A stretch of 64,000 bases of DNA from Cenococcum geophilum (taxonomy: Eukaryota), in contig CP158635.1 of NCBI GenBank assembly GCA_050273025.1, forward strand, positions 1,302,001 through 1,366,000. The letters run 5' to 3'. This document shows, in pieces, positions 39,461 to 61,220 of the stretch; position 1 is the stretch's first letter; each line of letters starts with the position of its first letter. A program made the translations under genes and the position numbers. The notes under the pieces were generated by a model. That model saw only the letters and a list, made by a program, of their open reading frames with translations, was not told the DNA's origin and made no database searches.

Positions 39461-41085
39461 ACCTAAACCTATTACGGCTATTAAGAAATACAAGTTCTTT
39501 ATAAAGAAGACCGATTTTGTTAAATTTATTATTAAATTAGGTTATATTAGTATAAACCTAAAAAATATTAAAGCTATAGTAAGTTAGTAAGAACCGGAGA
39601 ATGTAACGTAGTTAAGGTTATTTTTAGGGTTTTGCAACTACTATAGAAGGTTTATAGTATATTAGTTAAAGAATATTAAACCGTTTACTAGGCTTACTAA
39701 GAAAGAGAAACTATAGATTTAGGGAAATAAGTAAAGAAAGTTATTTAAGAAACTTAAGGAGTTATTTACCTAGGAGCTAATTCTTAGGATTTATTAACTA
39801 GGACTAAACATAGTTATAAAAATAGATATATTAGACTTTATACTAAGAGTATATTTACTATAAAGGTACGAGAATATATAGAACCTAATAGCGTACTATA
39901 GTTAGAAGATAATACTACTGGAATTAAACTACAACATTTATAACAAAGAGTTGTTAGGTATAATTACAGCACTTAAGAAATAGAGAGCATTCTTATAAGG
40001 CGTAGAAAAACTATTTATAGTTAAGGTGGATTATAAGAACCTAACGGGGTTCCTAATAATAAAAGAACTTAATTAGAGATAAGTTAAATAGGCAGAGATG
40101 CTTATAGAATACTATTTTAAAATTTAGTATACTAAAGAAACTAAAAATACAAGAGCGGATGTACTAAGTAGAAAGGCTAAATTATAGAACAATAAGAAAC
40201 TATTAGGAGTAATACTACGTAGAGATAATAACGGATTAATTAGATATAATTACCCTAAACTAGTAGTAACCTAAAAGGATAAAAAATTAAAAAGAGTCTA
40301 TAAGATACTAGAAAGCTTTTAGATATAGAAAATCCTAAAAATATAGCTAAAAGATTTATAGATAGATACGTACGAGAACTAAGAAGTAAAGTATATCCTA
40401 AAAAGTATTACAAAGCATTTTATAAAAGATTTCTATAAGGGAATAACTTAAGGACATAACAAAGTAATAGGCTTAGTATTAAGACTTTAGGAAGAATATA
40501 TTATTAATAGAATCTAGGGCATAGCTAGAAAAGTAATAAAAGAGTATTTAGATTGCTAAAGAAATAAATTAATAAGGTATAAGCTATATAAAGGGCTATA
40601 ACCTATTAAAATACTCTAGAGACTATAGGAGGTTATATTATAGGACTTTATTATTAAGTTACTAAGTTAAGAGATTCTATTACTAAATAGGAGTATAATG
40701 TAATCCTAGTAATAGTGGACAAGTTAACTAAATACGGCTACTTTATAACATGTATAGAAAAAATCTTAGCAGAAGATATTACTGAAATCTATATTAAGGA
40801 AGTGTTTATAAGATATAGAGCACTAAGTAAAATTATATTAAACAGATATCTAAGATTTATAGTAGTATTTTAGGAGGTATTTTTAGCGGAATAAGGAGTT
40901 AGAGCAGCAACTTCTACTATATATTACCCGCAGACGGATAAATAAATAAAAGGATTAAATTAGACGCTAGAATAGCATTTAAGGCACTATATTAATTATA
41001 TATAGAATAATTAGGTATTATTATTACTAGTTATATAGTTTATATATAATATAATACTATAGAAAGGAATAGACATATTAATATT

Positions 41086-44000
41086 ATTATTATTCATTAC
41101 TTAACGTCCGATTCGGATCCCTATTGGGCCCACGCGGACTACTCCTTATATATATATGGGGAGAAAACTCTATTTAAGAAAACCCCATAATCTATCTCCC
41201 CGCCTTTTAGGACTCGCCTATAAGGCGCCTACGAGGCGCCTGCGAGTTACCTATAGTGCTCTACTACCTTACTTTTTAACCTCCTTAGGAACTACTACTG
41301 CCGTAATAAGCCTACGGACGCGGTAGTATTATAAACTTTACTCTACCACTATAGAGTTATTAGGGGGCGCCCGTTACTCGCCCCCCCCACTCTTTATTAC
41401 TATTTCCTTTATAACCTAGAACTAGTTTAGTATATTTTAGCTAATAAGCCACTAGGTAACCGCCTTAAGGCCTTTTTATATTAAGAGCAGTATATTATAG
41501 TTCTCTATACTAGCTACTAAGAGCATTACTTCTTAGTTAGTGCGTAAGGGGCATAATAGTATTATATGTTTTAGTATCTGTCTTAGCCAGCCACATTTAT
41601 ATCTTAGGCTACCTACTAAAACACCCACCCAGTAGAGCCAGTCTTTTAGTCCTATTATTCCTATTCTTAAGAGTATTGCCATTATATTTTCTGCCTTTAT
41701 TAGGCCTTCTCAAAGCCCTAAAGTGTTTACCCCCTATAGCGTTAACTATGCTACGGCTTAGGTTCCTCTTGCCTTAGTCAGCCTCTATACCTTTAACTCC
41801 CATACACCTCTCTAGTATTAGTTTAGCCAGTGTTATATTATAGTAGATGGTTTCCTAGCATTCTTTTATACTCTACTTTTACTCCTTTTTCTCTCTTGCT
41901 ATTATCTTTACTAGCCTCTTATGCGTCTCCCTTCCTCCTCTATATAGGCCTAGGCCCTAAAGCAGTACTATTCTTCTTCTACTTTCTTTACCTGTTTCTC
42001 TAATATATCTTCCCTACTTTGGGGTTATTAGTTTATTCTCCTATAGGGCGCCCTAGGGTCCCTCTATAGTTTATTTAGGCGTGTCTTAATATACTTTATA
42101 ATATTAAAGTTATGTTTATTTTACGCCCTTTATATTATAGCGGCTTTAATATATAGTTATAGGGGGGGAATATTGGCTTCCTTTTTAAGTAGTACTGTGG
42201 CCGTTCGCTTATATCCGCCTATTATACTCTAAAGGTAGGCTATTTGGACCTTTTAGAGTGGTTTAAGGAGCGATTTAGGGGGGCCTTTTTTAGATTCTCC
42301 AATGGCCCAAATACTGGACCTATACGTTATGGTTAGCCGGATAACTACTATATATAGTAGGCGTAACCTCTAGAAGCATAGACCCCATATAGAATTAACG
42401 ATCCTAGATAATGCGATATACTATACTTAGCCCTTATAGGCCGCTTGCGCCGTATATACGCTCTACTAGAGCTTACTGTCTACCTATACTCCTAATACCC
42501 TTAGACCCTAAACTAGTTAACCCCTAAAGCGTTAGATGCGAATTATATGCTAAAGATCTGCAGATTGGTTGCGTTTTCTTATAAAGTAGATTAGCTGGTA
42601 TTTCTCTGGTAAGAATTGGACTCTATATTGTCTTGCCTATTCTATATAAGTGTTATAAGCTTTCTCTAGTGTTCTGCAATTTTCTGCGGCTATTGGCCCG
42701 TATATAATTAGGTTTATATTATTAATAAAGCCTATCCCCTAGGTCGCCCCTTTCTTAAAGGAGTTAAGTAGGTTACTTATAAAGAAAAGGAAGAGTATAG
42801 GCGAGAGGGGTAATCCTTATGGTATTCCTATTGCAACTATAATAGGGGGGCTCTAGTATCCGCTAAAGACTAGTAATATTTCTTTCTAACCTATAAACCC
42901 TTAAACAAATTGTATAATCCATTCTAGGAAGCCTTTTACCCTAAGGATATATAGGAGACGCTTATGGGGTACATTATTATAGGCGCCGCTAATATCTAGG
43001 CTAAGCATTAATACTATAAAGTCCCTTCGCATCGCCTATGCGGATTTAATGGTGGCAGCGAGTAGCGTAAGTACTAATAGTGTTAAGCGGTTCTTTCTTG
43101 CCCCCATTTAGCTTTATAGTAGTAGATTGTATTCCTTAGCCATATCTGCTATATAGTCCGCTATTACCTTTTCTAAGATCTTACTAAGGGTGTTTTCTAA
43201 GGCAATAGGGCGGTAGCTTCTTAGGATTAAGTAATCTGCTTTACCTTCTTTCTATAGAATAACTGTCGTTATAGCTCTTCCGAGTTGTGGGTAGTAGCCT
43301 ATAGTAAAGTATACCCTAGCTATATCTACAAGCTAGGGTGCTATAAGTGGTCCACAGGTTTTTAAGGCCTTATTTAGAATCCTATCTGGTCCTAGTGCTG
43401 TGTTATTTAAAGAGCGGCTAATAGTTCTGGCCATTTCCTCTATTGTTATATCGCTGTCGACCCTTAGGCAAGTCACTAGTGTTTTACCCGTAATATTGCT
43501 GAGGTCTACTAGAGCTAGTTAGGGGAAGAACCTTTCTATAAGGATCTTTGCCTTCTTATCGTTATTATTAGTGGCCTATAATTCCCCTGCTCTTTATAGG
43601 GGTAGTAGGTATAAGTCTTCTACTAGGCGCCCTACCTTTTTCTTTACCTATTTTGCTATAGCCTAAAGGCCCTTATTATAGGGGAGGCTTAGGTTAAAAG
43701 TGTGCTTATTTATAAACCGTCTCCAGTTATTCCTTACTTCTTTCTTTAGGGTATTCTTTAACTAGTTTCTTATATCTTTATATTATCTCTCATCTTTAGA
43801 GTTATAGCTACTTATATATTTCCTTCTTACTTATTATTAGCTAGTAATAAAAACCGCGCATTATGCGGACTATACGTGTCGCGCGTAGGGGCCCGGTTTT
43901 AAGACCGGGCAGTACTCTTTTAGCCTATTTTTAATCGCTGCCTAGATCCTTTCTAGTCTTTAGTTAATTTCCTTAGGGGTAGCTAATAAGCCTCGCTTAT

Positions 44001-47000
44001 TTAGAATTAGGTGGATTTCTTCTAGGTTTTAGAGTTGTTATTTAACTATATTAAGGAAACTATCTATTTTAAGCTTCCTTATTATATATCTTTTACTACT
44101 TAGTTGCGCCTTAATATCCAAATCTAGCTATATTTAGATGGGGATATAGTCTAAGGCGAGTGCCTATTCTTCTTTAGGGTTATACCTTTTAAGTCTCTAG
44201 TATAGGCCTTCGTCTATAAATATAAGGTCAATTATACTTCTAGAGGTTCCTCATTGCTATATAGTTGCTCCTAGGGGGGTAGCCAACTTAAAGCCCTAGG
44301 TGTCTATAGCTCTTAGTAGGCACTTTACCTATTAATCAATAGCAATATAGATACCCCCCTACCGCGGGTAGTGGAGGTTTATATCTCCTAGTAGGATAGA
44401 CTCTATACCTTTAATTTCTAGCAAGCTTATTACTAATATAATATTCTCTATTTATAGGACCCCTTTAACCATAAGGTTATACACATTAATAATTTATACC
44501 GGTCCCCTATATATCTAAATTATTATAACTGCAATATCTAGGTTAACTGCCTGCTATAACTATAAGGATAGGCTAATAGCCTTACTAATTATAAAGCACA
44601 TATATATAGCTGCTTTTGGTTTATATAGGAGCTAGAATCCTTAGGGGCAGTATATTAATTATATATAGGTATTGTAGTACGGCTCTTATATAGTAAGGAT
44701 ATAGTATTTCTCTAGGTCTAGACCGTCTAGTAAAGGCCTTATAAGACGGTGGTTTATGTTGCCGCAGTTATACTATATAATGAATAGGTAGCGGACCCCT
44801 AGCGAGGGTCCTTCGCCTTTCCTTTGTTCCTTGCTTCTTCTATTTTTACTTTCTCTAGAATATTTAGAACTTCTGTCTCTTATATCTATACCCTAGTTAC
44901 TACTTATTTTATATAGAGCTTTCTATTCCTATATCTTGTGTTCCTACTAGCGCTTCTATATCTAAATCTATTATTATCTCCAGTTTCTTCCCTATTCTTA
45001 CTAGCTATCTATATGCCCTTTATAGGTCGGCTATAAATATTATATTTACCGCGTTAAATCTAATTCTTAATTGTCCTGGTTTTAAGCTTACTATAGCTGT
45101 CTATAGGGGTCTTCCTATAGGGCGTCCTCTCCCTTATATCCCCTATAACCCTTATATCCCTATACAGTCTAGTAATATCGCGCGGCGCCGCTTCTGGCCC
45201 ATTAAGGCTTAGGATGGCTAGCCTAGCCCCCTAGTACTAAAGGTAGGAAACGCTAGGAAGGCACCTATATCCCCCTAGCTTATTACCTGTTATTTCCATT
45301 CGTATAACCTAGCGTATAGTTATTCCCGTAGCTATTAAGCCCTTACCTTCTACCTCCTGTATTTAATACAGTCTTCTCTCTCTTACGCCTTATATATGTT
45401 ACGGCACTGGCAGAACTTGGTAGAACTTGGCAGAACTTGGTAGAACTTGACTGGCAGAACTTGGCAGAACTTGACTGGCAGAACTTGGTAGAACTTCGCG
45501 GTTACGTGACTAGAGGACCGTATAAAAGAACCCTACTTTGACCGGCGCTGCTCTTCTTCTCCTTTCCTTTCTCTAGCTTTAGATCCTTGTTTATAGACTA
45601 CCAATCGTATAGGCTTGCGCGTCCCTCTTGCCGTGCTCGTGCCTTAATTAACTGAGTCGTTAATATTATCTAAAGCTTAACTACCCTTTCTTCCTAAGAA
45701 GGAACTTAAATATATTTACGGACCACGAACCAGAACAGAACATAGAATTAGACCTAAAGAATATTACTAGAACCAGAAGAATAGAAAAGAATAATAAGAC
45801 CTATAGAATACGTATAGACTAGAACCCCTGCAGAATCCTACTAAAGGTTACCCTAATAACTATACCATGATGCCAAGAAATACAGCAGCCGGCAAAGCAG
45901 CCGTAGGACCCTTAAATACCTCCAATGGTGAAACAGTAACTGACTCGAACTCCCAAGTGGAGCTTGCAGCAGCTAATGCCGAAATTAAATAACTTTGAGA
46001 GCTGCTTAAAGCCAGAGAACCCCCTACGCCTAGCAAGGAATTATTAGACACCTAGAGACTTGCTATAGTCCTTAAGGCTCTAGCCTAATGTATAGTATTA
46101 GTATTGTTGCGGTCCGCAAAGGTCGTGGACCCCCCGTTGCTTATAGACGGAACCGACCCTACATTTAACAATTAGAAGCTTTAATTGCAGGATAAGCTTA
46201 AAGTCAATGCGGACCACTTCCCTACTACTTAGGCTAAAATGGCCTACGTCTTTGGCCGTACCGGCGGGGACGCACAGACGCACCTACGTCCGCGGTATGC
46301 ATAGGACTCGGCAGAGCCCTTCCTCTCTAAAGAAGAGATGATTATCTACCTGTCTTCTATTTATAAGGACCCCTTTAAAGTATAAAACGCCCGACTTAAT
46401 TATAAAAGCCTAAATATAAAAACGATAGAGACCTTCTCGGCCTTTTAGACCCGCTTTCTGCACCTAGCCAGCTAGGCTCGAATTCCCCAGAAAGATTTAA
46501 TGCTAGACCTATTTAATAAGCTTACCCTAGACCTATAGTAAGCCGTACTGCTAGTTTTTACTACTATATAGACGCTAAAGGAACTTACGGACTAGTGCTT
46601 AGCTATCGACTAAGGCCTCCGCCGAATTAAGGTATATGCTGAATAGTATAAAGCCAGAAACCCTTTAAATCAGACTATAAGCAATATAAGAACGGCCCGT
46701 AATGCCCCAGCACGATTGGCAACCCCCGCAGCACCACCCGTACAGCCTACCGCCAATTTAGCAGCTAGCCGTGCGGCCAGCCCTGCTATAGGTCCGGCGA
46801 ATGCTCGGCCTACGTATAGCAACCCCCGTATATAGGCCCTTAGTGATTAAGGAGCTTGCTTTTCTTGCGGATAGAAAGGTTACCGTATAAAGGATTGCCC
46901 AATAAACGCGAAAGCGGACAAGGTTCTATTAATCTAGGAGGATAGCGCGGAGTCGGAAAAAGAGGAACCCTAGAGGAAGACTCCTCTCTAGGGTTAAAAG

Positions 47001-50000
47001 GGATTAACATGTCAGATATTAATCTGGGTCGGCTAGTTAGTAGAAGAAGCTACATTATCCCTTATACTTTATTCTGTAATAGATACTAAGTTTTAACCTT
47101 TACTTTAGCTAACTTTGGAGTAAATACCTTTGCCTTAATAAATACCTAGTGTGCCATAAAGCTGGCTGACTTCCTAAATGCACCTATCAAAGAACTGCCC
47201 AAACTAATTCCTATCCGCGGGTATAATGGGCGGATAGGACCACCCATTACAACTATCTTGCGGATTCACCTCCGTGTTAACGGACGAAGGTAGTATAACG
47301 CCCCCTTTCTTATTACGGACCTAGGTAGCCACAATATAATCTTAGGGCGAAAATGGCTAGCCTATTTAGGCTTATAGCTCGACATACGGAGTAAACGGCT
47401 TACCTGGCCCAAAACCCTACCCCTAACCCCTTCCTTTATAAAAGAAATCAGCATTATAATAGAAAACCTCGTACGGCCCTAGATTAATACTATTTACTAG
47501 GCCAATGCTATGCGTAGGGACTAGGCCTTTAAGAAAGATGTACAGCTTAATTCGTAACGGATCCGTATACTACGTCGCCCCCAGACTACCTATGTTACGC
47601 CACCCGTATTAAAGACCTAGGAAGTTAGTAGTAACCCAGAAAAGCCCCCCATGGAGAGCTTAAGCCCTATGTAGCCACGAAGAACAGCAAGGGATGTCGG
47701 ACGTTACACTGAACTAATAGATTAAAGGGATAACCTGCGGAAGATGGAATAGGAGCTAAGAAAGATTATAAACCCTAGACCGCAAAATACGGTCCGGAAA
47801 ACGGCTATAAGGAAACCAGCGGACCTCCCACTAGTTAATGTCTGCTATATTAGTGCCGTAGGATTCTACTAGAACTTGGTTCAGCCTAATACCGTCGCCT
47901 TTATAACAAGCTTATACGAAATTAATTAAATAATTAAGGAAAAGGGAAACAAGCTTAGCGGACAAGAAAGCGAGCTTATAGATAAGAAACTAGTAAAACA
48001 AAAGCTGCCCTATTGATACTAGAAATTCAAGGACGTATTCTCTAAAGCAGCGTCTAATATACTTCCACCTTACCAACTATATAACTATAAGATTGAGATT
48101 AAGCAGGGCAAAGAAAACACCCTTAGCTTTAGCCCCCTCTACGAGCAGTCTATTACCAAATTATAGGCTATAAAGTAGTATCTTATTAATAACCTAAATA
48201 AGGGCTTTATTAAGCCTAGCCAAGCCCCTTTCGCCTCGCCTATTCTCTTTATTAAAAAGCCAAATAGAGGACTCCGCTTCTGCATTAACTACTATAAGCT
48301 AAATAATATAACCCGCAAGGATCGCTATCTGCTGCCTCTACTTAATAAGACTCTAGCCCGAATAAGTAGAGCTAAGGTCTTTATAAAGCTTAATATCCGC
48401 TAGGCCTTCTACCGAATTAGGATGGACCCCGGGTCTAAAGATCTTACTACGTTTTAGACCTATTACGGAACATATAAATATAAAGTGCTCCCTTTTAGAC
48501 TGACTAACGGACTAGCTACGTACCAGCGGTATATAAATAATGTACTCTTTAACTACCTTAACGATTTCTGTATGGCCTATTTGGATGATATTATAATCTA
48601 CTCTAAGAACGAGCTAGAATACGAGGAGCACGTCTATAAAGTCCTATAACGGCTCCGCGAGGCTGGCCTCTAGGTTGACATTAAGAAGTTAAAGTTTAGT
48701 GTTAAGCGTATAAAGTACCTAGGTTTTATTATTAGTATAGACGGAATTAAAACCGACCTAGAGAAAACGGCCGTAATTAACTAGTGGGTACCTTTACGGA
48801 CCGTAAAGGGGGTACAATCCTTTTTAGGGTTTTGTAACTTCTACCGACGCTTTATTAAAAACTACAGTAGGATTGCCCGGCCTCTTAACCGTCTTACTAG
48901 AAAAGACCAGCCCTTCTACTTTAACGCTATATATAGGCAGGCCTTTAATGAGCTTAAGAAACGGCTAGTATCGGCTCCCCTACTTGCCCATTTTGACCCG
49001 GAACGGCCCTTAATGCTAGAAACTGATGCCTTAAACGGCGCGATAGCTGGTGTTTTTTCCCAGAAGTAACCGGACGGAGAGTGGCACCCTATTATATACT
49101 ATTTGAAGACTATAATAGATGCCAAGCTAAATTACCACATCTATAACAAAGAAATGCTGGCTATTATCTCTAGCTTTTAGCACTGGCGTGCACAGCTAGA
49201 GGGGACCCCTAAGCCGATTAAGGTAGTTTTAGATTATAAGGCCCTAGAATACTTCATAATAACTAAGGCCCTTACGGCCCAGCAGGTACGCTAGGCGGAT
49301 ACCCTATCTTAGTTTAACTTCTTAATTATATATAGATTAGGCGCTATAAACCGTGCGGACGCTCTTATAAGGCGCGAGTAAGACCTAGATAACTAGACGG
49401 CTGCGAAGATCTTACTACGGACCTAGACGCTACTATAACCAGAATACCTTGACCCCTGGATACGGGCAGAACTAAGTATAGACTTCTTAGGCGCCGAGAT
49501 ATGTCCTATTAACTCCTCCGAACTTAACCTTATTAATAAACTACTATAGGCTAACCGAATAACCCCCTCTTTATAGGAATACTATAAAAAGGTAAAGAAC
49601 GTTACTAGCCTATAGTCCCTCGAAAACGGACTACTTAAGCACTAGGAATGGCTAGTAGTAGCTAAGGAACAGAACTTACGGACCTGGCTTATTGCCGAAG
49701 CTTATACCTAGGTCTCTACGGCCTACCCTAGAAAAAATAAGACCCGTAAGATTATTGGTAACCGCTACTACTGGCCCGGAATGGTTATAGATATTAACCG
49801 TTATATACGGAACTGCGACAGCTGCCATAGATCTATAATTCTACGAGATAAGACCCCAGGACTATTAAAACCTCTCCCGATACCCGACTGCCCCTAATAG
49901 CATATCTCTATAGACTTCTATGAGCTACCAACAGACCGCGACGGATATGATATGGTTATAATTCTAGTTAACCGCTTTAGCAAGCGCCCGTTCTTAATTC

Positions 50001-52645
50001 CCTATTATAAGAATATTAATGCTAAGGAGGCGGCCTAATTGTATATCCACTACGTCTACCGTATTTACGGACTACTAGATACTATTATATCCGATTACGG
50101 CCCGCAATTTATATTGGCCTTTTGGAACGAGTTTACCTAGATCCTAGGTATTAGGCTAAAGCTCTTTATAGCATACTACCCCCAGACAGACGGCTAGACG
50201 GAGATTGTAAATCAATATTTAGATCAGAGACTCCGGCCTTTTATTAACTACTTCTAGGATAACTAGGGCAAACTGCTACCCCTAATAGACTACGCCCAGG
50301 CGACCCTACCCTATGACTTTATAGGATTTGCACCTATCTAACTAGAAATGGGGTATTTACCCTAAATAAGCTTTAACTGGGATAGACTAGAAGGACCATG
50401 GACTGTATGCAAGAAACTGTTTTATAAGGAAGCCCAGTAGTACGCCAAGCGCTTAGAGGAAGCCTGGATGGTAGCCCGTATAAATCTAGAAAAGGCCCAG
50501 AAATTAATGGAATAGTAGGTAAATAAGCATAGGCGCGAACCCGACTTTACCGTAGGCGATATGGTCTGGGTTATGATAAAGAACTAGAAGATGGAACGGC
50601 CTAGCCGTAAGCTAGACTATTAGATGGCGGGACCGTATAAGGTCCTTAAGAAGATAGGTAACTTATATAAAGTAAAGCTCCCGGATTCAATTAAGGTTTA
50701 CCCCGTTTTCTCGCCGGATAAACTATGAAAAGCTGCGAACGACCTATTGCCTAGATAAAAGAACGAACCTCCCCTACCGATTTAAGTTAATGGCGACAAC
50801 GAATAGGAAATTGAAGAAGTACTGGCCTATAAACTAGTAAGGAAAACGCTAAAGTACCGCGTTAGTTGGAAAGGCTATAACCCAGATCCTACCTGGTACC
50901 CTATATAGAACTTTATTGGCAGTCCCCATAAGCTTTAAGAATTCTATAACCGCTACCCTAATAAACTAGGACCCCTAAAGTACCTAGACGAGTAGATGGA
51001 GTGCTAGTATAGCGAAGATAATAAGCTACCGGAAGAATATAAAGATAAGAACGCCCTATAAGCATAATACGGACTACAAAGCCTGAGGGCAGGCTTTTGC
51101 GGAGGGGGGGGTAATGTTACGGCACTGGCAGAACTTGGCAGAACTTGACTAGCAGAACTTGGTAGAACTTAACTGGCAGAACTTGGCAGAACTTGACTGG
51201 TAGAACTTGGCAGAACTTCGCGGTCACGTGACTAGAGGACTGTATAAAAGAACCCTACTTCGACTGGCGCTGCTCTTCTTCTCCTTTCCTTTCTTTAGCT
51301 TTAGATCCTTGTTTATAGACTACTAATTGTATAGGCTTGCGCGTCCCTCTTGCCGTGCTCGTGCCTCGATTAACTGAGTCGTTAACAATATATGCTTTAG
51401 TAGCAGTTTGCATATTTTATTTAGTCTTAATTTAAGTAGTATTTTATATCGTGGGGGCCTATATAGTGGCTGCAGCATACCTATGCTGCGCATATAGATT
51501 AAGTATATCCCTATTATACGTAGTAGTAGTATTATTCTAGGCGTAGTTTATAGTTATAGAGCCTTGCGTTGTATATAAGGCCATTTATAATTATTCCTTT
51601 TTAGATAAGGAGTTTTTATATTCCTAGTATATATATACTAACGATAAGGGAGCTATGTGTTTAACTGGCGTCTCCCTAGCGAGTCTCTGGCAACCCTTAT
51701 ATCCTCTTATTGTTTTTATTATTTGCTTAGTTTATATTTTCCTATTAAAGCTATTAGATTTAGGTAATCTCGAGGCCTAGTATAAGGCGTTTTATATATT
51801 TTACTATCTCCTATATAGTTACTATATTGTCCGCCTAGCGTCCCTTTTTTACCCTAAGGCTTATAGGAACCGCTAGGACTTTAACTAAGTAGTCTTTATA
51901 GAGCACTTTTATGCTAATACGTTCTCCTAGCCTGTCCCCTACCCTTATAGCTTATTCCTTTACCTATTAGTCCTTTAGGGTAACTCTAATATCTCTACTC
52001 CTAAGGTATTGGACTATAACTACGTTGTAGACCTCTTTATAAATCTTTATAAGGACTTCTATTTCTAATTATCTCCTAAGCCCCTCTACTTTTTCTATAT
52101 TTAGTTATATTGTAATTATATACCCAGTTATTATCTTAAGGGGGGTGGGTTCCCTATAGTGTAGAAGCGCGGCTACGGCGGCCTAGGTGCGGTTTACCAG
52201 TAAAAAGGGATTTTATTTATTTTTAATTTTATTTAGCCGTTAGAGGATTTAATTAAGGGTTTACTAGAGGGGCGCTTAAGGTTTACTAGACTGGCGGAGC
52301 CATTCTACTAGCTATATTAGTTTATTATAGCTAATAGTTACTTCCCTATAGTTCTAGATACTAGACGCTTCTAATAGGCTTTATATTTTATTAGATGCCT
52401 TCTTAATAGAGGTATTTCCACTTTATAGTGTGGTATTCGCCCGTCTTTATTGTGGAGGGCCGTTGTTAGGCGTGGATCTGGCGGTTACGCGTGAGTGCGA
52501 GCCACCGTCGGTCGACGTGTGCCTCCCCTGCGATGTATACATCTTAAGGGGATTCTCTAGGTGTTTTTCAGGGTTCTTTTTGGTTGGTTTTAGTCTTTTT
52601 GGGCCGGGTGTAGCAAGAGCTCCTTTTTCGCATTAGTTTATTATT
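41086..52645 (-). mobile_element. Tad1-like LINE, apparently full length (~5.56 kb net), RIPed, interrupted by Gypsy C in ORF1
   Basis: 16-bp TSD TAGACATATTAATATT (41070-41085 and 52646-52661); (TAA)n 3' tail; ORF2 with APE II*YNCG at ~44770, RT GIP*GLPLSPILFLF at ~42810 and GFINN (=FVDD) at ~42725; ORF1 from ~52303 with zinc knuckles. Confidence 0.92.
45397..51387 (+). mobile_element. Gypsy chromovirus C, full length, moderately RIPed; same family as B
   Basis: LTRs at 45397-45665 and 51115-51387; TSD ATATA; PPT GGAGGGGGGGGTAA; gag from ~45868; RT AYLDDI at ~48575; chromodomain at ~50800-50960. Confidence 0.96.
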
Positions 52646-53795
52646 TAGACATATTAATATTTAAGGCAAATTACGGATATAAGCTAAGAATATTATTATT
52701 ACTATAATAAGTAAAGAAAACGAGTAGTATAGCTAAAGAAAGAATAAAGATATTAATAAATCTTTATATAGACCTTATAGAAGGAGTAAAGATAGTATAA
52801 AAAAGAAGAAAAAGGTACTATAACGCTAAGAGATCTAAAGGACTATATCCTAAGGAGGGGGATAAAGTATAGCTACTATATAAAAATTTTAAGAGTTAGC
52901 AACTAAGTAAGAAATTAGACTATATTAGACTAGGACCTTTTAAAATTATATAAAGGATTTTATTAGTTACGTTTAAGTTAAACCTACTAGCTAAGATAAA
53001 GATCTACCCTATATAGTATATTATAATACTAAAGCTAGTATATAGAAATATTAAGCTACTAATTTATAAAGTAGATATATATAAAGGATAAGAAGAAAAC
53101 AAAGAGTAAGTTTTAAGGATTATTAGTTATAAGGATATTAATAATAAAATATAGTATAAGGTTAAGTAGATAGGCTATAATAAGACTACCTAGAAACTAA
53201 AAAAAAACTAAAAAAAAAACGCTATAGAAAAGGTATAGGAGTTGTATAATTACAGCACCTGTTATACCAAACGCGTGCTTACGCGTTCGGTACACCAGGT
53301 ACGCGTTTACGCGTTTAGTGCACTAACTACTCGCTTACGCGTCTGGTGCACTTATGAAGCACTGACTAATTAGGGGGGAGGTGCATTAGTATATAGACCA
53401 CGTAGTCTGCTTTATATAACCGATAGTTACCATCTAAACAAGTATACGATACTATATGTATTTCGTGCCCGTGGATACGACTTATTCATACTATTAAGTT
53501 AGTACGAATACTGATTAGTGAGCGCGCATAGATCAGCAATCACTTAACACCTCCCCCCGAGCGATATATACGATAGCGACCACCCGTTTAGACTCCTAGT
53601 ACGACCTGCTAGAAGGTCGGAAGTCGGGGATTATAGACTTATCTCCAACTCTATATACTTATTTAAGTCTTAGTACGGTTTACTAGAAGTTATAAACGCG
53701 AATACAGACCTATATGGAACCCCTATTCTCAACCTCTTTGAACCTTAAACCCCTATTCCTACTATACCCTCTTTTAACACCTCCGACGTCTTTTT

Positions 53796-53945
53796 AGACC
53801 CCTTACGGAGACCCCCTACCCTTCTGCGAACCGTTACGGACCTGTTAATTACCTTTACGGACCGTTACGGAGACCTCTTACCCTTCTACAAACCACTATG
53901 GACCCGCTAACCGCCTTTACGGACCCTATAAGACCTCTACCACCC
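53796..53945 (+). repeat. ~60-bp tandem duplication in the 5' region of Copia F
   Basis: Repeated TTACGGAGACC(C/T)C(C/T)TACCCTTCT...CCTTTACGGACC units. Confidence 0.7.
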
Positions 53946-54454
53946 GCCACGTACTATATAGTATGGCAAACATTAGCAAGTAAGTTAGCGAAGGTTAAAA
54001 GAAGTGGAGATAAGGCGTCGACGTTACGTCTATAAACGATGTTAACGACTATATTAGCTTTAAAATCCTTAAATATAGACACTTTGAGCTTATAAATGAC
54101 GACCTGTGGGAGCAATATAAGGAAGACTTTGCGGACTTTACGGAAGCTATTTTTAAGGCTTACAACCCTACTGCCATCCGTAACCTACGAACCCTTTTAC
54201 GTCACTAAGGCGTATAGGTTGAAAGGGACAAACGAGTTACTGTTGCACGGTCTCTATACGACATACTACGTGAGAAGGACCAAACGGAATGGACTAAGGA
54301 GCAGATCTTAGATTATATTAAAACCAGCGACCTCTTTACCTCCTTTAAACTTAACAGAATCTCTGGCCTTATAGCTAACCTATTTAACCGAATTCGTTCC
54401 ATAAACCCAAGTAGTATTAGAATTAATTTTACTGGCTAAAGTACACCTAATACT

Positions 54455-54608
54455 CAAGTTACGGACCATAATACCCCCGTAACCCAAATTACGGACCGTA
54501 ATACCCCTATAAACCAAAATACGGACTAAATTACCCCTGTTGTTTAAGTTACAGATCCGCAAGCTATATATCCACAAGCTATAAATCCGTAAGTTATAGA
54601 TCCGCAAC
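54455..54608 (+). repeat. 30-bp and 15-bp tandem repeats within Copia F gag
   Basis: CAAATTACGGACC(A/G)TAATACCCC units, then (A/G)ATCCGCAAG(C/T)TATA units; unit lengths preserve the frame. Confidence 0.7.
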
Positions 54609-57600
54609 CTACCTAAGTAAAGACCTATAGCAAGGAGCTAGCTAACCTGGCTAAGCTCTATACCGACGAATCTAAGTACAGCGGTGAAAACGATAACTTT
54701 AACTTTAAACTTACTATCTTTACGGACCTCTGTCGGAAGGCTGATATTCCCAAATAGGAATTTAACCAAGCCTATTCCACTATGCTGCGCGGCCTAGCAC
54801 TTAACCACTACTACACTAACCTTAAGAGTAACCCCCTTGGTGTCCCCTTTAATAAGCTATACGAAGCTACCTATAATTACTTTAAAGGACCGGAATATAG
54901 GCGTGATATCCTTACCCAATAGAATGCGACCAAGCTACGGACCGTAATTGATAAGAATACTAAAAAATCGACTATAGAGTGCCTGCAAATTCTTATTAAA
55001 GACCTCCGGCACCTATAGTATGGCCTTAACGCTAAGCTTTGAACAGATAACTTCCTATATAATAAACTTATTACAGCCTACTAGAAAGTAAAGCCCTGCA
55101 AGTACGCCTACTATAAGCCTATAGATACCTTAGCTAGCCTTATTAATGACCTACGCTCCTCTATTATAACGTATAAAGTCTTAAACCCACTAGGCAGCAC
55201 TTAAGCCTTTGTTGTGGATATTTAATATCCGTAAACAGACTTAGACGTCTACTTTACGGACCGCCGCTACCGCTAGCAGTACCTGTACCGACTAAGTCCC
55301 ACCCATAACCCCCGTAGCAACCCCCGTATAAAAACATACCCCTATAAATAAACTAACTAGAAGTACTTTATGTGCGGTAAGGAAGGATATTGGTCTATAA
55401 GGTATACCCAGGAAGAATATAATAAGTCTAGGAAGAGATTTAATAGCTATATTAACTAGTTTATTTTAGAATATAAAGGAAAGGAAGTAGAAGAGCCCCC
55501 TAATAAGTTAATAGAAGCCCTTATAATTAACTTTAACTTAGACGCTTAGGAATAAGAGACCTCAGAGACATTCCTAACCACTTTTAGACCTTTTACGGAT
55601 AGCCAAGCCTTTAATATTACGACCGTATTAGCCGACCGTTCCTTTATATACTTAGTTGCGCCTAAAAACCATTCCGCAAGTACCCCTGTTACGGACGTTA
55701 TAGATTATAAGTAGGACCTATTTATATATATTACCACGGAACGCTATACCCCTAAAGAATTCTACGGCGTTATAATCGATATAAGTGCCTCTAAGAAGTC
55801 TACTGTAGGTTATAGATAATACCTTATATATAGGACCACCGTAAATAACAATACAGATATTAATACTACGTAAAATAGGGCTATAAACGTCTAATTCGGC
55901 ATCGGCTTAACCGTATTAATTAGATCAGTTATAGTTAAGACTCCAATTAGCCTAGTTAACTTCCATATAGTAAAAGCGGACACCCCTTTCCTACTTTGCC
56001 TTGCGGACATAGATAGGTTATAGGTATACTATAACAACGTCACGGACACCCTAATTGGCCCTATAACCACCCTAGGAAGCAAGTATATTACCCTACCAAT
56101 TACACGACGATTTGGACACCCGTTCCTTATATAGGGAGAGACTTTACAGACCTACATTTAGGAATCTTTCGACTATAACCCGTACTACCTTACCAGTACG
56201 GAGATCCACCATCTATACTGCCGTTTCGGCCACCTGTTAGCCGAAAAGCTATATAGAGTCCTTAAACGCTCTGGACACGACAACGTTAATAGGAAGGCAG
56301 TTAATTACCTGACTAAATACTGCTCCTTTTGCCAGAAATACGGACGTTCCCCAGGCCGATTTAAGTTCACCCTTTGTAAGGATCTTAACTTTAACCACTT
56401 AGTGTACGTAGATATTATATATATTAACGGCAGCCCAGTACTATATATAATTGATAAGGCAACCCGTTATTAAGCCGCCTATTAGTTATAAAATATATCC
56501 GCAAAGCATACTTAGGATATTCTACGGACCTACTGGATTAACACGTACGTTAGACCCCCTAAGTATATTACCCACAACGCCAGTAGGAACTTTATTAGCA
56601 AGGAATTCCAGCAGTATACTACGGCTATAGCTATATTAATAAAAGCTGTTCTAGTTAAGGCGTATTAGTCCGTTAAGCTTATTAAGCGAGCTTACCTAGC
56701 TTTACGGAGAGCCTACTAAATTATTACGGATAAATGTAAGGATATTTAAAAGGAACTGGCTCTATAGATGGCTGTAAAAGCCGTTAACAACACCACTGGC
56801 CCTAACGGACTAGTACCCACCCTCTTAGTTTACGGAGCCTACCTAAGGATAAGCAGCCTAGGCCCTCCTGCCCCGTCTATTACGGAACAAGCAGCTGTAA
56901 TACGGAAGGCAATGGCCGAAATAGTTAAATTACGGGCTAAATAAACTGTTAATAACGCCCTATACTACCGCAACGGACCTAATATAACCCTAGTACACAA
57001 CCTCCCGCTTAACTCTAAAGTCCTTATGTGGCGTAAAAGCGGCAATTAGACTAGACCTTACTGTCTACTAGCCGTAGAAGACGAGACCTACTGTGTATAG
57101 CTCCCTAACGGACCGATAAGCTTTAGAAGCACGTCCGTAAAACCCTATTTTTGGTCTGAAAACATTTATAACATCAAGCTAGACGAACTAGAAGCACCCG
57201 CCGAATTGGATAAACTAGAAGCACCCTTACCTACCCTAGAGGTCCCCCAGAAACCCAATGAACCTGCGGAACCTGCTGTAAAGTGTGGCCGAGGACGCCC
57301 CCGCAAGAACCCCGTAATGGAGAATTACCTAACCTCCGCAGGCACATCCACAAAGCAATCTCCGCCTGTGGATATATCAGTTTTAGTATAGGAAACCCCT
57401 TTTACGGACTTATAACGTAAAGAGATTAATGGACTACTTAAGAAGGGCGTCTTTGCGGTTATAATGGAGAGAGACGTTCCGTAAGGCGTCCGTATATTTA
57501 ACTTGCGCTTTATTAACGAAATTAAGCACCCTAGTACTAATAAAGCCTTTAAAAAGTTAAGGCTTGTTATATAAGCTTATAACGACTAGGGAAAGGACCT

Positions 57601-59456
57601 TGTCCTTACGCAATCGCCTATAATTTAATGGGTTAGTTAACGGATTATACTTGCGCTTATACCGGGTCTACAGAAAACTAAACCCGTAGCTCTCTACTTA
57701 CGGGACATCTTATAAGCCTATATGTAGTCTAGTACCTACCTAAGTAGGGATATCTTTATACGGCTACCGCTCGAGCTTAATTTATAACTAGGAACAATTT
57801 TATGGGTTATAAAACCACTTTATGGAGTACCAGAAGCTAGAAACCACTGGTTTAAGATATACCACTAGCACCACGTTAGTAAACTTAAAATGGAGCAGTT
57901 AACCTACAACCCCTGCCTCCTATACAGCCCATTGAACGGCCTTAGTATTATTAGACTTTAAATAGACGATACCCTCTTCTTAGTAGACCGGACATTTATG
58001 GACACTAAAGAGACTAAACTGTAAGAAGCTAAGTTCCTGGCAAAGCCGCGAGAGTAGTTAACTAAGTAGACTCTAATTAAGTTTAACGGAGGCTTAATTA
58101 TACAAAAGGGTAACTTAATCTAGCTGACCCAGGAACGCTAAGCTTAAAACCTAAAGCTTGTTATAGTAAAGCCTACGGACCTTACCAGTTCCTGTAGAGA
58201 AACCCATAAGACCGTAAATATAAAGGACTAATACGCTGTATAGCGTGCAAGAGGCGCCTATATTGCCATAGTCTGTCAACCTAAATCTGCCTACGATCTG
58301 TCCTTTGTGGCCCAGGCAGTAGACCCGTAAGAAGAAAATATTAAGTAGCTTAATAAGCGCATCTAGTGGCAAATTAATAATGCAGCAAGGGGACTTACTT
58401 TTATACCACTAGACCTGAATTCCCTTAGCCTACTGGTATTTACGGACGCATCTTTTGCTAATAATAAAGACCTATTATTACAAATTGGCTTTGTAATTGT
58501 ACTTACGGACCGCAATTAGGACGCAAATATACTATACTGGTCTTTAATTAAGTGTAAATGAGTAACCCGTAGTGTACTAGCTTCTAAACTATATACACTA
58601 GCTTATAGATTTAATATAGCAGCCGCAATTAAATTAACGGTCCAGAAGATTTTATAACTGGAGCAGTTACCCCTGGTTTTATGCACCAATTTAAAGTCCC
58701 TTTATAACTGCCTAGTTAAACTAGGTACGACACAAGAGAAGAGGCTCATGGTTGACCTAATGTGCTTATGTTAGGCCTATGAACGACGTGAGATTATGGA
58801 GGTTAAATGGATTAGCAGCGGAGACAACCTAGTAGACGCTATGACTAAGGCAAAGCCGTGTTAAGCTCTTAAAACCCTAATTAATATAAACAAGCTTAAC
58901 TTAAAGGTTATAGAATGGGTAAAGCGAGACTAACGGAGCATTTACGGTTCAGCTACGGCCCGTCAGAAGGCCGTATAGTGCATTTATAGCCCGTTAAAAG
59001 GCCGTATAGTTCATTTTACGGACCGTAAGTAGGACTTACGGCCAGCTTGGAGCACCATTTGGAAGGCAACCCAGAAGGCACCTCAGGAGGGATTTCCTAT
59101 GTATTTTCCTTTGTGTTCTATAGTTTTATTAAAGCAATTACGGAGGCTGTATATAGGTGGTTTCATTTTTTAAGTACTGCCAGTGTATAATTACAGCACC
59201 TGTTGTACTAAACGCGTGCTTACGCGTTCGGTACACTAGGTACGCGTTTACGCGTTTAGTGCACCAACCACTCGCTTACGCGTCTGGTGCACTTATGAAG
59301 CACTGACTAATTAGGGGGGAGGTGCATCAGTATATAGACCACGTAGTCTGCTTTATACAACCGACAGTCACCATCCAAACAAGCATACGATACTACATGT
59401 ATTTCGTGCCCGTGGATACGACTCACTCGTGCTATTAAGTTAGTACGAACAGGAGT

Positions 59457-60096
59457 ATTAGAAGAGAAAGGGTTAGGTAATATTAAGAAGGAGCTAAAGA
59501 TAAAGGGATTAGTTAAGGGTAATAGACAAGCCGGATTATTTAAGGGATCTACTATTAGCGTATTAGTTGTTTCCGCCTCTTCTTAATTAAAATCCTTTTT
59601 GGCCTCCTTAGCCTTAAGCTTAAAAAGACCTTATTTAATAAAACGTAACTCCTTTAAGCGTACCTTTTTATAAACCTTTATTAGACGGCTTAAACGAGTA
59701 TAAGTATTTAGTTAAGTTTTTAGAGCCTAAGACGCCTTATTAAAACGATGTTAAACTTTAGTAAGGACTTTATCTAGCTTACTCTCTAGTTTTTTAGCTG
59801 CTACTAATACGCGAGACTCTAAGGCAGATTAGATAAGGAAGTTAAAGACTTTAAAAATTAATAAAACACGTATACTTAGCGTTAAAAATAGATTAAATAT
59901 TACAAGATAATCGCATATTCGCTCGCGTATACTTAGTATATAAAGAAAGTTAGCGACTAAATAGAGCCGCGATTATAATATATACTAACTTCTTCTCCGT
60001 ATAATAAAAATAAGATAGTATAACTTTACTAAGTAATAGAATAAACGTCACTAGCTAATTACAATGATTAGACGCAGAGGATTTAATAGAAGGTAT
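59457..60096 (-). pseudogene. RIPed antisense accessory gene of Gypsy E: Cys6-type zinc-binding domain plus coiled coil, one intron (59819-59873)
   Basis: De-RIPed reading MPS.KSS...MPSCSxCxEKKLVC...SSCxECTRANMRSSCD...AEW / SRV...EKLESELDEVL...; 55-nt intron with CTAAT branch and TAG acceptor restores the frame. Confidence 0.6.
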
Positions 60097-60789
60097 TAGA
60101 AACAATAAAGGTTATTAAATTAAAGATAGGGATGCTATACCTCTAATAGACAACTTAGAGATAGGAAAGATCTTTAAGAATAAAGATAAAAAGGAGGGAG
60201 ATAGTGTTACGGACCTTATATTGGTAGTAGTAGAACTACTAAAAAGATATATAAACGGACTAGTGGTAGAAGTATAAGAGGTGCTAAAATTAGTTAAACT
60301 ATAGAATAAGGGGTAGCTAAGTTACGTAGTTAGTTATATTATAAGTTTAAAACGTAAAAACGTAGGAATATAGGAACGCGATATACTAACCTACTAACAT
60401 ACTAATATACTTAGTACATTTCTTAGGCGTAGTATTGTATATTTAAAGGACTACAGTCCCTACCTAGATAGTTCTCTTCTTTATAGTAAATCTTAGAATA
60501 TAATTAGAGTTAATCTATTAGGCAACCACTCCACTAGTTATTATTACGTTATTAACTTCTTATTTACCTATATACCTAGCCTATTAATAAGTCTACTATA
60601 GTTCCTACTATAAGGCCTCGTTATATAAAGTTATATAAAAATCCTTAGGTTAACCTAGGTAGTTACTAGTATACTTTTAATAGACTTTTTATAGGTCTCC
60701 TAGTAATCCTTATACCTTTTCTCTAGTTATATATTTTTATTAAAGTTTTTAGGAGTTTAGAGTAGGGGTTAGATAGATAATATATAGTA

Positions 60790-61220
60790 ATATGCTAATA
60801 TCTCTCCGAACCCCTTCCGGGACGAGCTCTTATAATCTCCCTCTACCGTAAGGTAATGGCGATCAGGGGCCGACTGTAAGAAGAGGTGGGCAATATAAGG
60901 GATATTATTGCGGGCACGTGCCCGTAGTATATAGTCTCCACGATCCCAGAGGCCTTACCTCCTCAAGAATTCGTCTCCTCCACAATCTATCTGTTCCTAC
61001 AACCGTGCCTTATAGCCCCCTGTCTACAAAGTCCCCTCACAATAACATCTTGACTTTATTATATAGTTTACGTACTATCATGCCCAAGCCCAACCCACTC
61101 GACCATGCAAACTATCAAAAAGATAGCAGCAGTGTCCCGCGACTGGACGGACTGCCGGTTGGAATGCCTTATAAGCTCTCCAGCCCATACCTGCCATATG
61201 GGTAGCGCAAGGTCGTGACA
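60790..61220. mobile_element. Putative solo LTR or LTR fragment
   Basis: Ends in GTGACA like other LTRs in the window, with a TATATA box followed by a C/T-rich tract; 5' boundary and TSD not resolved. Confidence 0.35.

Follow-up and report, generated by a model that had tools for sequence, protein, structure and literature searches.

In plants, extra genes on the antisense strand of LTR retrotransposons have been described for decades; in Botrytis such a gene, brtn, has been described since 2011. The passages that deal with these genes call their function unknown. The layout of an antisense gene is therefore not new. The closest described system is brtn of the Boty-like elements (2011, Virology 417:248, cited in PMC8365987, PMC7264820, PMC4227169 and PMC5987419). 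According to the citing passages, Boty is, like the element described here, an ascomycete chromovirus with gag, PR, RT, IN and CHROMO, and it carries an extra, antisense gene located between pol and the 3' LTR. The same passages describe a Monilinia transcript with similarity to a truncated Pol as well as to BRTN, in keeping with a tail-to-tail overlap such as that of the present gene. They mention no cysteine cluster, domain or function, and brtn is likened here by its layout alone. None of the relatives that we looked up carries the name BRTN. We lean slightly toward the view that the present gene may belong to the same family as brtn.

The antisense ORFs of the plant Ty3/Gypsy elements Grande1, RIRE2, Retand and PvRetro13 have the same position and orientation, and the part of PMC7264820 that deals with them describes them as conserved in the majority of copies of a family and gives their function as unknown. 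Compared by that description, they differ from the present gene in that they belong to non-chromovirus lineages and no Cys6 cluster is mentioned for them.

Two known domains resemble the cysteine-rich part of the product. DUF3716 (PF12511) is a fungal cysteine-rich domain of ~60 residues, and three proteins of the present family match nearly its whole profile, although with 14.5-17.4 bits they lie under the cut-off of 22. In Zymoseptoria it is, in the published passages concerned, likewise found in an accessory gene of a mobile element, but the carrier is a DNA transposon and not a retrotransposon. The Gal4-type Zn(II)2Cys6 proteins with a coiled coil (Ppr1, 1pyi) share with the present product the six Cys arranged as two C-x2-C-x6/8-C halves and, according to the structure prediction, a short helix that follows each C-x2-C, as well as a linker leading to a long helix. 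However, the product described here stays below the Zn_clus cut-off, has a loop of 13 residues between the halves and few basic residues in the cluster, and carries a far longer helix (~80 residues) in a whole protein of ~200 aa. Fungal Gal4-type regulators have a middle homology region, which is absent from the present protein. Small Gal4-type factors consist of the cluster, a long helix and an acidic tail in that order.

HBZ of HTLV-1 is a bZIP factor with an antisense gene, which is transcribed from the 3' LTR and spliced. The present gene may be likened to it as an antisense gene beside the 3' LTR, with a spliced mRNA and a product apparently built for DNA binding via a dimerising helix. 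HTLV-1 is, however, an animal retrovirus and the fold is unrelated; the analogy is one of layout only. A literature search for a zinc-cluster antisense gene in retrotransposons gave nothing relevant among the matches listed.

The antisense gene and its host element in the window

The features found in the window, that is, in the whole stretch of 64,000 nucleotides that was analysed, are shown in Table 1. As shown in the table, two exons on the minus strand, separated by a short intron, make up a RIP-degraded gene.

Table 1. Positions of the antisense gene, its host element and the nested insertion in the window.
Feature	Position	Strand	Remarks
Pol C-terminal end of host Gypsy/chromovirus (integrase SH3 and chromodomain-like stretch)	52858..53242	+	SH3_Tf2-1 E 9.4e-5, below cut-off
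3' end of the antisense gene: last six codons (TPIPFL) and stop	53222..53242	-	separated by nested insertion; antisense to the pol chromodomain end
Nested LTR retrotransposon	53243..59451	+	LTRs 53243-53510 and 59184-59451, TG..CA
Exon 2, main part (long helix region and acidic/hydrophobic tail)	59457..59818	-	5 premature stops, plus junction codon T/AG
Intron, spliceosomal, 55 nt	59819..59873	-	ends AT..AG in the window
Exon 1, 223 nt	59874..60096	-	start codon 60096-60094 now ATA; 3 premature stops
In-frame TAA upstream of the start codon	60124..60126	-	TAA in 59 of 66 rows, CAA in none
Polypurine tract of host Gypsy element	60188..60204	+	read from sequence; directly before LTR start 60205
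Host Gypsy 3' LTR	60205..60602	+	begins TGTTAC; loose ends of reads and contigs; sharp family boundary in L001

The cysteine pattern lies in the minus frame 60300-3k at 60012-59902, and it reads Y-x2-Y-x6-Y-x13-Y-x2-Y-x8-C in the window. The Tyr codons at 60012, 60003, 59982, 59940 and 59931 are all TAT, and the sole real Cys codon is TGT at 59904. The helix part is read in the frame 60299-3k, and the skip of the 55-nt intron links both frames. Because of the counts in Table 1, the upstream TAA is probably ancestral and bounds the ORF.

The decay of this copy is evident. RIP-type transitions have changed the start codon from ATG to ATA and five of the six Cys codons to Tyr codons. The donor is AT instead of GT because of a RIP-type G>A change, and the acceptor AG is intact. 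The gene model also contains nine premature stops, counting the junction codon, which is TGG (Trp) in relatives. The initial annotation had called all stops RIP-type; all nine are indeed TAA or TAG, but this says little alone, because TGA makes up just 4% of the stops in the RIPed part. With these transitions, the nine stops and the nested LTR insertion, the window copy is dead.

The nested element is flanked by a 5-bp duplication, GGAGT, at 53238-53242 and 59452-59456, and position 59457 is the first base past it. The insertion has separated the last six codons and the stop from the main body of the antisense gene. The TPIPFL end, translated on the minus strand from 53242, agrees with the C-termini of P0003, P0008 and related loci. 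The gene had been placed between the chromodomain and the polypurine tract; because 59457 adjoins the target-site duplication of the nested element, this placement holds once the insertion is removed but not as the window stands. After such removal, the gene is seen to lie within an LTR retrotransposon, antisense to pol, in the interval that follows pol and precedes the polypurine tract and 3' LTR. It sits tail-to-tail with pol: its start is ~90 nt inside the polypurine tract, its end is ~30 nt inside the chromodomain-coding end, and its last ~30 nt, or more, overlap pol. Locus L022 is a second case of the same arrangement. There, a complete array of PR-RT-RNaseH-IN-SH3-Chromo lies opposite the gene, with the Chromo match ending at ~2637 and the gene stop at 2668.

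The edges of the host 3' LTR were marked by loose ends, at 60205 in X17 and in 42 reads of run X21, and at 60602 in 19 contigs of X1 and 21 of X5, and a peak of depth was observed within it at 60434-60595. We regard this LTR as the likely site of an antisense promoter. A RIP-tolerant local alignment found no 5' LTR partner of the host element in the six stretches tested. A direct-repeat search of three related loci of 12 kb gave no pair of LTRs, as the flank does not extend to the 5' LTR.

From the window sequence alone, the evidence against chance is weak. The [CY] version of the cysteine pattern turns up four times in a six-frame translation of the window. Of the 213 codons in the helix frame, 10 are stops, as against 15-31 in the other frames, and 10 stops or fewer were reached in 1.15% of 2000 dinucleotide shuffles. 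A Pfam search of 59452-61100 in all six frames gave no match, a comparison of 59000-61000 with the window by blastn revealed no second copy of the region, and BLAST in a purine/pyrimidine alphabet gave noise only. The reality of the gene is settled by its relatives: among those that are less mutated or intact, the inferred Cys residues are present, and so are the start codon (ATG at 60096), the donor GT and the splice junction.

Relatives, splicing and the protein product

A phmmer search gave 30 proteins with E<=1e-3 (best 2.7e-16), and a metagenome scan with a 5-row alignment as the query gave 375 relatives, from which 80 loci were kept. In two DNA runs, 9799 and 8813 contigs aligned to the region at 80% likeness. 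Codons were counted over 66 rows, that is, 65 related metagenome copies and the window. The six Cys columns contained TGY or TAY codons exclusively, and TGY was present at Cys 1 to 6 in 26, 45, 24, 27, 50 and 36 rows. The start codon was ATG in 17 rows and ATA in 49. The initial annotation had proposed an element-borne gene opposite gag-pol and had restored five Cys from TAT to TGT. These proposals were borne out by intact relatives that have the start at 60096, six Cys as the ancestral state and a helical second part; the less-RIPed copies possess the open frame, the Cys residues and the GT donor alike.

As for the intron, the donor was GT in 15 of the 65 copies and AT, the RIP product, in 50, and the acceptor was AG in 63. 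The intron length was 55 nt in 61 copies, 127 nt in two, and 61 and 54 nt in one each. Seven distinct stop-free natural proteins (P0003, P0050, P0054 and P0060-P0063), encoded on nine contigs of 941-1629 nt, lack exactly this intron, and in all seven the predicted junction is precisely where ..A[EK]-W-S[RQ]V.. is joined. The intron is retained in P0056 and P0059, which belong to the same 90% cluster, and the contig of P0056 is 120,785 nt long. The short intron-less contigs are probably derived from RNA. These sequences indicate that intact copies elsewhere give molecules from which the intron is precisely removed; such removal, together with GT..AG on the gene strand, marks the intron as spliceosomal and confirms its predicted place. 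In the alignment of reads and contigs at 80% likeness, no joint at 59873/59819 was seen among the 15 listed of 39 joints.

It had been argued that the intron can persist owing to its antisense orientation relative to the genomic RNA. This explanation agrees with its retention in all 65 genomic copies, the short contigs being the only ones that lack it. Transcription from the 3' LTR side, which had also been assumed, is suggested by the spliced P0050, because it covers the polypurine tract in antisense orientation and reaches ~30 nt into the LTR. A second intron may be present on the 5' side, and splicing of it would eliminate an upstream ATG. RNA raw reads of run X21 gave zero depth over 59462-60163, and one RNA-library contig retains the intron region. 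Both observations would be expected if the copies are silenced and the RNA is the sense genomic RNA.

Compared across these relatives, the ancestral product is a protein of ~190-200 aa with a short basic N-terminus, a Cys6 cluster, a helix of ~80 residues and an acidic hydrophobic C-terminal tail. The spacing C-x2-C-x6-C-x13-C-x2-C-x8-C was found in the window (in its [CY] form), in 64 of 65 loci by regular expression, and in P0050, P0054 and P0044, which have all six Cys. The six-Cys pattern of the initial annotation thus stands, but the gap between Cys 3 and Cys 4 is 13 residues and not 12. The spacing of Zn_clus is C-x2-C-x6-C-x5-12-C-x2-C-x6-8-C, and the loop here is one residue beyond that range. 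Between Cys 3 and Cys 4 the residues are hydrophobic (V/I-A-I-A-A-P), not basic.

The AlphaFold model of P0054 (mean pLDDT 81.3) predicted one helix from residue 72 to 151, with block-mean pLDDT of 95-99 from residue 81, and a short helix after each C-x2-C in a cysteine domain of pLDDT 50-70. A model of exon 1 alone had a mean pLDDT of 52 and was discarded. The heptad-like acidic/Leu helix claimed earlier is therefore supported as a long helix, but the crude heptad count is weak (0.5-0.62) and the net charge of the region is 0. The tail has 7 acidic residues and 1 basic residue in 48.

The identity of the cluster was examined by profile searches. No protein reached the Pfam gathering cut-off of Zn_clus (PF00172), 21 bits: the best was L022 (17.5 bits, E 0.0047), followed by P0044 (15.8), L020 (14.9), L009 and P0033 (14.1 each), P0054 (13.6), L057 (13.4) and P0050 (8.1). 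DUF3716 likewise stayed under its cut-off in L022 (17.4 bits, profile positions 4-59 of 59), P0055 (15.4, 3-59) and P0044 (14.5, 9-58). Among 24 proteins with the cysteine domain, sub-threshold matches were obtained to Zn_clus in seven and to DUF3716 in three. The spacing had been described earlier as reminiscent of Zn2Cys6 clusters; the Zn2Cys6 label is unproven, because both profiles score below their cut-offs. Atlas clusters gave leads only: one neighbour cluster (score 0.90) is automatically named 'Zn(2)-C6 fungal-type domain-containing protein', and another (score 0.77) has DUF3716 on 28% of its members. The Atlas neighbours are ascomycete hypothetical proteins of 161-204 aa. In a sequence search of the PDB the best match was the Zn2Cys6 regulator Ppr1 (1pyi), which was not significant (E 0.56), and the exon-1 alignment, used as a profile against PDB sequences, gave nothing meaningful (best E 1.3). 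Foldseek against the PDB gave no match at E<=0.001, and VIA-align wide gave just generic long-helix or coiled-coil chains (Z at most 7.4). The long helix dominated these fold searches.

A reading that accepts the gene but gives it another role has to be considered here. That is, the six Cys may form a zinc or disulphide module for contacts with protein or RNA instead of a DNA-binding Zn2Cys6 cluster, with a role in, for example, integration targeting, particle assembly, nuclear import or blocking of host silencing. The Zn_clus scores, which stay below the cut-off in every protein tested and give only E=4 for the unmutated six-Cys P0050, speak for such a module, as do the hydrophobic segment, the nearly full-profile DUF3716 matches, the uncharged helix and the weak heptad count. 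On the other hand, the module resembles a binuclear cluster in its spacing of Cys and in having a helix behind each C-x2-C, and the order of cluster, long helix and acidic tail is that of small Gal4-type factors. Moreover, the Neurospora orthologue of a DUF3716 protein is termed telomeric-sequence-binding in a passage of PMC10776026. We consider this alternative unlikely. The product seems to be built like a DNA-binding regulator, and from this build we infer its function; the transcription factor or anti-silencing factor suggested by the initial annotation is a candidate role.

Coding constraint in the family

In 64 of 65 copies, the length of the spliced coding sequence is divisible by 3; the exon-1 lengths (220-241) are all 1 mod 3, and the exon-2 lengths (347-401) are all 2 mod 3. 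In exon 1, the columns polymorphic for transversions at codon positions 1, 2 and 3 numbered 21, 8 and 43 (p=2e-6). In exon 2 they numbered 28, 27 and 62 (p=4e-5), with 16, 14 and 43 in the first half; the periodicity was not significant in the second half (12, 13 and 19). No codon periodicity was seen in the intron (8, 7 and 6) or the LTR (36, 31 and 28). The stops summed over the 65 copies were 143 in the gene frame of exon 1 as compared with 281-470 in the other frames, and 343 as compared with 386-1010 in exon 2. The antisense gene was present, at the same position overlapping pol, in all 65 aligned copies. Its periodicity and frame-keeping lengths across the copies indicate that the protein was under purifying selection during the diversification of the family, and the comparison identifies the gene as the third gene in a Ty3/Gypsy chromovirus family that has a high copy number in ascomycete fungi.

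It may be asked whether the antisense frame is a mere shadow of conservation on the sense strand, for example of a C-terminal extension of pol or of cis-acting RNA/DNA signals before the polypurine tract. The pol-strand frame of exon 2 is nearly as free of stops as the gene frame (386 compared with 343) and is open for ~90 codons in L020, the end of the gene truly overlaps pol, and indels in multiples of 3 do not tell which strand is coding. However, the gene frame of exon 1 has half the stops of any other frame, and the order of the exon-1 counts (position 3 > position 1 > position 2) fits the antisense reading, whereas a reading in the pol-strand frame with the same third position implies position 2 > position 1. 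The switch of frame exactly at an antisense-oriented GT..AG intron, the seven natural sequences with this intron removed and the six invariant Cys positions in the antisense frame also speak against a shadow, which we regard as very improbable.

Slightly less probable still is that a fragment of a host gene was captured once by the family and carried along without use to the element. The Atlas neighbours described above would be consistent with a capture, as would DUF3716-like genes, which the relevant parts of PMC8232023 and PMC10776026 report as ordinary fungal genes and in a DNA transposon. Against it, the frame, intron and length have been kept across subfamilies that have 40-60% protein identity and differing indels, both exons carry the signal of purifying selection, and all 65 copies examined have the gene at the same place, overlapping pol.

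The possibility that the ORF and the Cys pattern arose by chance from generously back-mutated, AT-rich RIPed DNA has next to no likelihood: the four occurrences of the [CY] pattern, the uninformative stops, the missing GT donor and the empty Pfam search of the window's six frames would permit it, but it is refuted by the evidence from relatives, namely homologous stop-free proteins, Cys codons in 24-50 of 66 rows, periodicity and frame-preserving indels.

Proposed mechanism and the nested setting

Taken comprehensively, the following reading is likely: the window holds a dead copy of an antisense two-exon chromovirus gene, the product of which may have acted as a regulator. The mechanism that we propose is as follows. 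An antisense promoter in or beside the 3' LTR would give an mRNA of 1-1.6 kb, and the intron would never be lost in retrotransposition, this mRNA being antisense to the genomic RNA. The six Cys are predicted to bind two zinc ions and the chains to pair via the long helix. The protein, built as a miniature Gal4-type factor of cluster, helix and acidic tail, would then bind DNA and may be the element's own regulator of LTR-driven transcription or of the chromatin state. Taken by itself, this mechanism of promoter, zinc binding, pairing and self-regulation seems to us plausible, if slightly on the doubtful side.

We further speculate that a widespread group of fungal chromoviruses encodes a spliced antisense Gal4-like zinc-cluster factor from the 3' LTR as a counterpart of HBZ, that this factor binds the LTR or host chromatin and controls transcription or silencing, and that the DUF3716-type genes dispersed over fungal genomes and DNA transposons descend from, or feed, a mobile pool of DNA-binding modules. 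This wider proposal is tentative, and we think it rather doubtful as a whole.

The family offers a concrete protein of ~200 residues with six conserved Cys, a long helix and an acidic tail, and it also shows clear purifying selection and occurs in nature in spliced form. Should the protein be a DNA-binding regulator, these elements would carry a transcription factor of their own. This would bear on the timing of transposon activity and the evasion of silencing in fungi, and also on the origin of some orphan cysteine-rich fungal genes (DUF3716).

The nested element that interrupts the gene has LTRs that are 94% identical. It gave no Pfam match at E<=1e-5 and a weak rve match (E 0.011) upstream of RT/RNase H-like motifs. 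Mainly from a reading of these motifs, its order appears to be of the Copia type. For the window itself the outcome is modest, namely a relic inside a RIP-mutated transposon nest.

The window copy and its setting

Up to about 61.3 kb, beyond which the ordinary genes lie, the window consists of nested, RIP-mutated transposons (GC 0.26-0.45, TpA/ApT 1.7-1.9). We conclude that the feature at 59457-60096 is a genuine accessory gene that a chromovirus carries in antisense and with an intron, and that the copy present here is dead, split by an insertion and riddled with RIP mutations. This confirms what the initial annotation had observed at this place, and the structure it proposed was largely correct. 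The features concerned are listed in the table.

Coordinates of the antisense gene, the host element and the nested element in the window
Feature	Position	Strand	Remarks
Antisense gene, exon 1	60096-59874	-	
Intron	59873-59819	-	55 nt
Antisense gene, exon 2	59818-59457	-	
Host element		+	heavily mutated Ty3/Gypsy chromovirus
Host pol end	up to 53242	+	Tf2-type integrase SH3 match and chromodomain-like stretch
Target-site duplication of nested element	53238-53242 and 59452-59456		5-bp GGAGT
LTR pair of nested element	53243-53510 and 59184-59451	+	268 nt, 94% identical, TG..CA ends
Polypurine tract of host element	60188-60204	+	sequence reading
LTR of host element	60205 to near 60602	+	start TGTTAC

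From its LTR pair, the ends of these LTRs and the GGAGT duplication, the nested element is a complete LTR element inserted into older sequence. The gene stretch runs from 59457, the base immediately past the duplication, and is followed by the polypurine tract and then the LTR. That is, the gene lies between chromodomain and polypurine tract, as had been claimed, once the nested element is removed.

Read by itself, the window sequence is weak evidence for a gene. The six codons of the cysteine pattern are five TAT and one TGT, as first read, with the spacing x2, x6, x13, x2, x8; the gap between the third and fourth cysteines had been given as x12, and the other gaps were right. The [CY] version of this pattern occurs 4 times in the six frames of the window. 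A charged helix-like stretch lies in a second minus frame, 55 nt further on. The proposed intron donor is AT and hence also depends on a back-change. The nine premature stops of the gene model are all TAA or TAG, so it is correct that all are of RIP type, but this is weak evidence, since TGA makes up only 4% of the stops in RIPed DNA. The low number of stops in the helix frame, 10 in 213 codons compared with 15-31 in the other frames, is the only signal in the window alone, and it is modest; the value was matched in 1.15% of 2000 dinucleotide shuffles.

Gene structure and splicing across the copy family

When the minus frame was translated with X in place of stops and used in a full HMMER scan, 30 short unnamed predicted proteins were obtained at E<=1e-3 (best 2.7e-16) from JGI, ENA and SRC metagenome sets, some of them free of RIP damage. 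The JGI metagenome contigs, scanned with five of these proteins, yielded 375 relatives, and 80 loci were kept. We aligned the window with 65 of these, namely 62 spanning the whole region and the three least mutated short ones; the other 15 did not cover the region. In two DNA runs (organisms A and B), contigs with 80-99% likeness to the region number in the thousands, and their differences are almost exclusively transitions; this is a high-copy family, and RIP mutated its copies independently of one another. The strand opposite the antisense gene in the metagenome locus L022 encodes protease, RT, RNase H, integrase zinc finger, SH3 and Chromo, and the Chromo match extends some 30 nt into the 3' end of the antisense gene.

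Only TGY or TAY codons were found at the six cysteine positions in the 66 aligned rows (TGY in 26, 45, 24, 27, 50 and 36 rows for positions 1-6). Because RIP changes G to A, cysteine is ancestral at all six. All six are present together in one natural genomic copy (L022) and in three database proteins (P0050, P0054 and P0044). At the start codon, 60096, 17 rows have ATG and 49 have ATA; the in-frame TAA 30 nt upstream, found in 59 of 66 rows and never as CAA, is therefore probably ancestral. The intron donor is GT in 15 copies and AT in 50, and the acceptor is AG in 63 of 65. The intron measures 55 nt in 61 copies (127 in 2, 61 in 1, 54 in 1), and under the gene model 64 of 65 copies have a spliced length divisible by 3, despite length differences in exon 1 (220-241 nt) and exon 2 (347-401 nt). 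Thus an open frame, the cysteines and a GT donor are all present in relatives of the window copy.

In order to detect selection, we counted transversion-polymorphic columns at codon positions 1/2/3, because transversions are not made by RIP. The counts were 21/8/43 in exon 1 (p 2e-6) and 28/27/62 in exon 2 (p 4e-5), and those in the intron (8/7/6) and the LTR (36/31/28) were not significant. No significant periodicity was seen in the latter half of exon 2 (12/13/19), where the gene overlaps the pol tail. Stops summed over 65 copies were fewest in the gene's frame for both exons; in exon 2 one pol-strand frame was almost as open.

In seven distinct natural proteins (P0003, P0050, P0054 and P0060-P0063; encoded on nine contigs of 941-1629 nt), exon 1 runs directly into exon 2 at a Trp codon that spans the junction, exactly as predicted by the 55-nt intron, and the intron first proposed is thereby borne out. 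Since genes were called in the source as uninterrupted ORFs, the intron must be missing from the short contigs themselves. P0056 and P0059, in the same 90%-identity cluster as P0060-P0063, retain it, and P0056 sits on a 120,785-nt contig. On the simplest reading, the short contigs would be assembled transcripts of intact elements. Two further proteins join the exons differently: P0045 (contig of 2113 nt) with four extra codons and P0011 with a large skip. They could be deletion variants or products of alternative splice sites.

P0050 reads on in frame across the antisense of the polypurine tract and some 30 nt of the LTR, and about 54-62 nt are missing from it; the missing stretch includes the upstream ATG and has GT..AG candidates. 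It corresponds to L020:273-335 and to about 60085-60150 (minus) of the window; P0054 retains it. These hints suggest that the antisense transcript may start in the 3' LTR with a second, alternative 5' intron, and the difference between P0050 and P0054 suggests two N-terminal isoforms. L020 is a metagenome contig of 1901 nt, and on it the database protein P0049 has Trp for the TGA that precedes the gene's start; genes must therefore have been called in the source with a TGA=W code on this fungal contig, which made the ORF artificially long.

The raw RNA reads of sequencing run X21 had zero depth over 59462-60163, and one RNA-library contig retains the intron region. Both are expected for silenced copies or sense genomic RNA and have no bearing on intact elements.

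Protein make-up, function and known counterparts

As seen in unmutated family members, the protein opens in some cases with a basic N-terminus of some 30 residues. A conserved hydrophobic stretch with Met-Pro-Ser at its end leads to the Cys6 cluster, and a short linker then runs to the junction Trp. Next come about 90 residues in which Ala, Glu, Arg, Lys and Gln are abundant, and last a 48-residue tail that has several Phe/Leu and 7 acidic residues against 1 basic. The AlphaFold model of P0054 with 38 rows (mean pLDDT 81.3) has a single helix at 72-151, with block means of 95-99 from residue 81, and a short helix directly after each C-x2-C, the cluster reaching only 50-70.

Both the Zn2Cys6 label and the regulator role are putative. 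Pfam Zn_clus stayed below its cut-off (best 17.5 bits against 21), as did DUF3716 (best 17.4 against 22), although the DUF3716 match covers almost the full profile in three proteins. Among PDB sequences the Zn2Cys6 regulator Ppr1 matched best, but not significantly (E 0.56), and fold searches returned only generic coiled coils. Atlas neighbours, which serve as leads only, are ascomycete proteins of 161-204 aa, one cluster being auto-named Zn(2)-C6 protein. We tentatively favor a DNA-binding, helix-paired regulator that would act on the element's own LTR or chromatin; this is the likeliest function predicted, at somewhat under an even chance. The main rival is a zinc module that does not bind DNA.

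A feature of this kind is already known. Published work describes an extra antisense gene, brtn, between pol and the 3' LTR in Boty-like chromoviruses of Botrytis and Sclerotinia (PMC8365987, PMC7264820, PMC4227169), and a Monilinia transcript similar to both truncated Pol and BRTN (PMC5987419). By its position and strand as described there, brtn is the same kind of feature as the window gene. Plant elements are also described as having antisense ORFs of unknown function at the same place (PMC7264820), and in Zymoseptoria two accessory genes of an IS3EU DNA transposon are described as carrying DUF3716 (PMC8232023). The matches listed in our literature search included no relevant zinc-cluster antisense retrotransposon gene. 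What is contributed here is the domain make-up, the evidence of selection and the natural spliced forms.

Neighbouring repeats

A second, less mutated Gypsy chromovirus lies at 45430-51391 (LTR pair 45430/51152, 94% identical). Its pol stops about 150 bp short of its own 3' LTR, too little space for an antisense gene, and the accessory gene is thus specific to the family of the host element. In the nested element, integrase-like motifs and a weak rve match (E 0.011) lie upstream of RT/RNase H-like motifs, an order that suggests a Copia type; no Pfam family was found in it at E<=1e-5.

Part of the host LTR, 60434-60595, stood out in both DNA runs by a very high peak of depth, with a summed word depth of up to about 1.7 million, far exceeding the adjoining bins. 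This part is shared with many further copies or solo LTRs, or else with another repeat. Within 39600-45400, from translations only, a heavily RIPed Gypsy RT/RNase H/integrase (GC 0.26-0.30) was read on the plus strand at about 39.6-41 kb; it could belong to the host element as its upstream part. After it, at about 41.5-45 kb, a non-LTR (LINE-like) reverse transcriptase was read on the minus strand in the same way.
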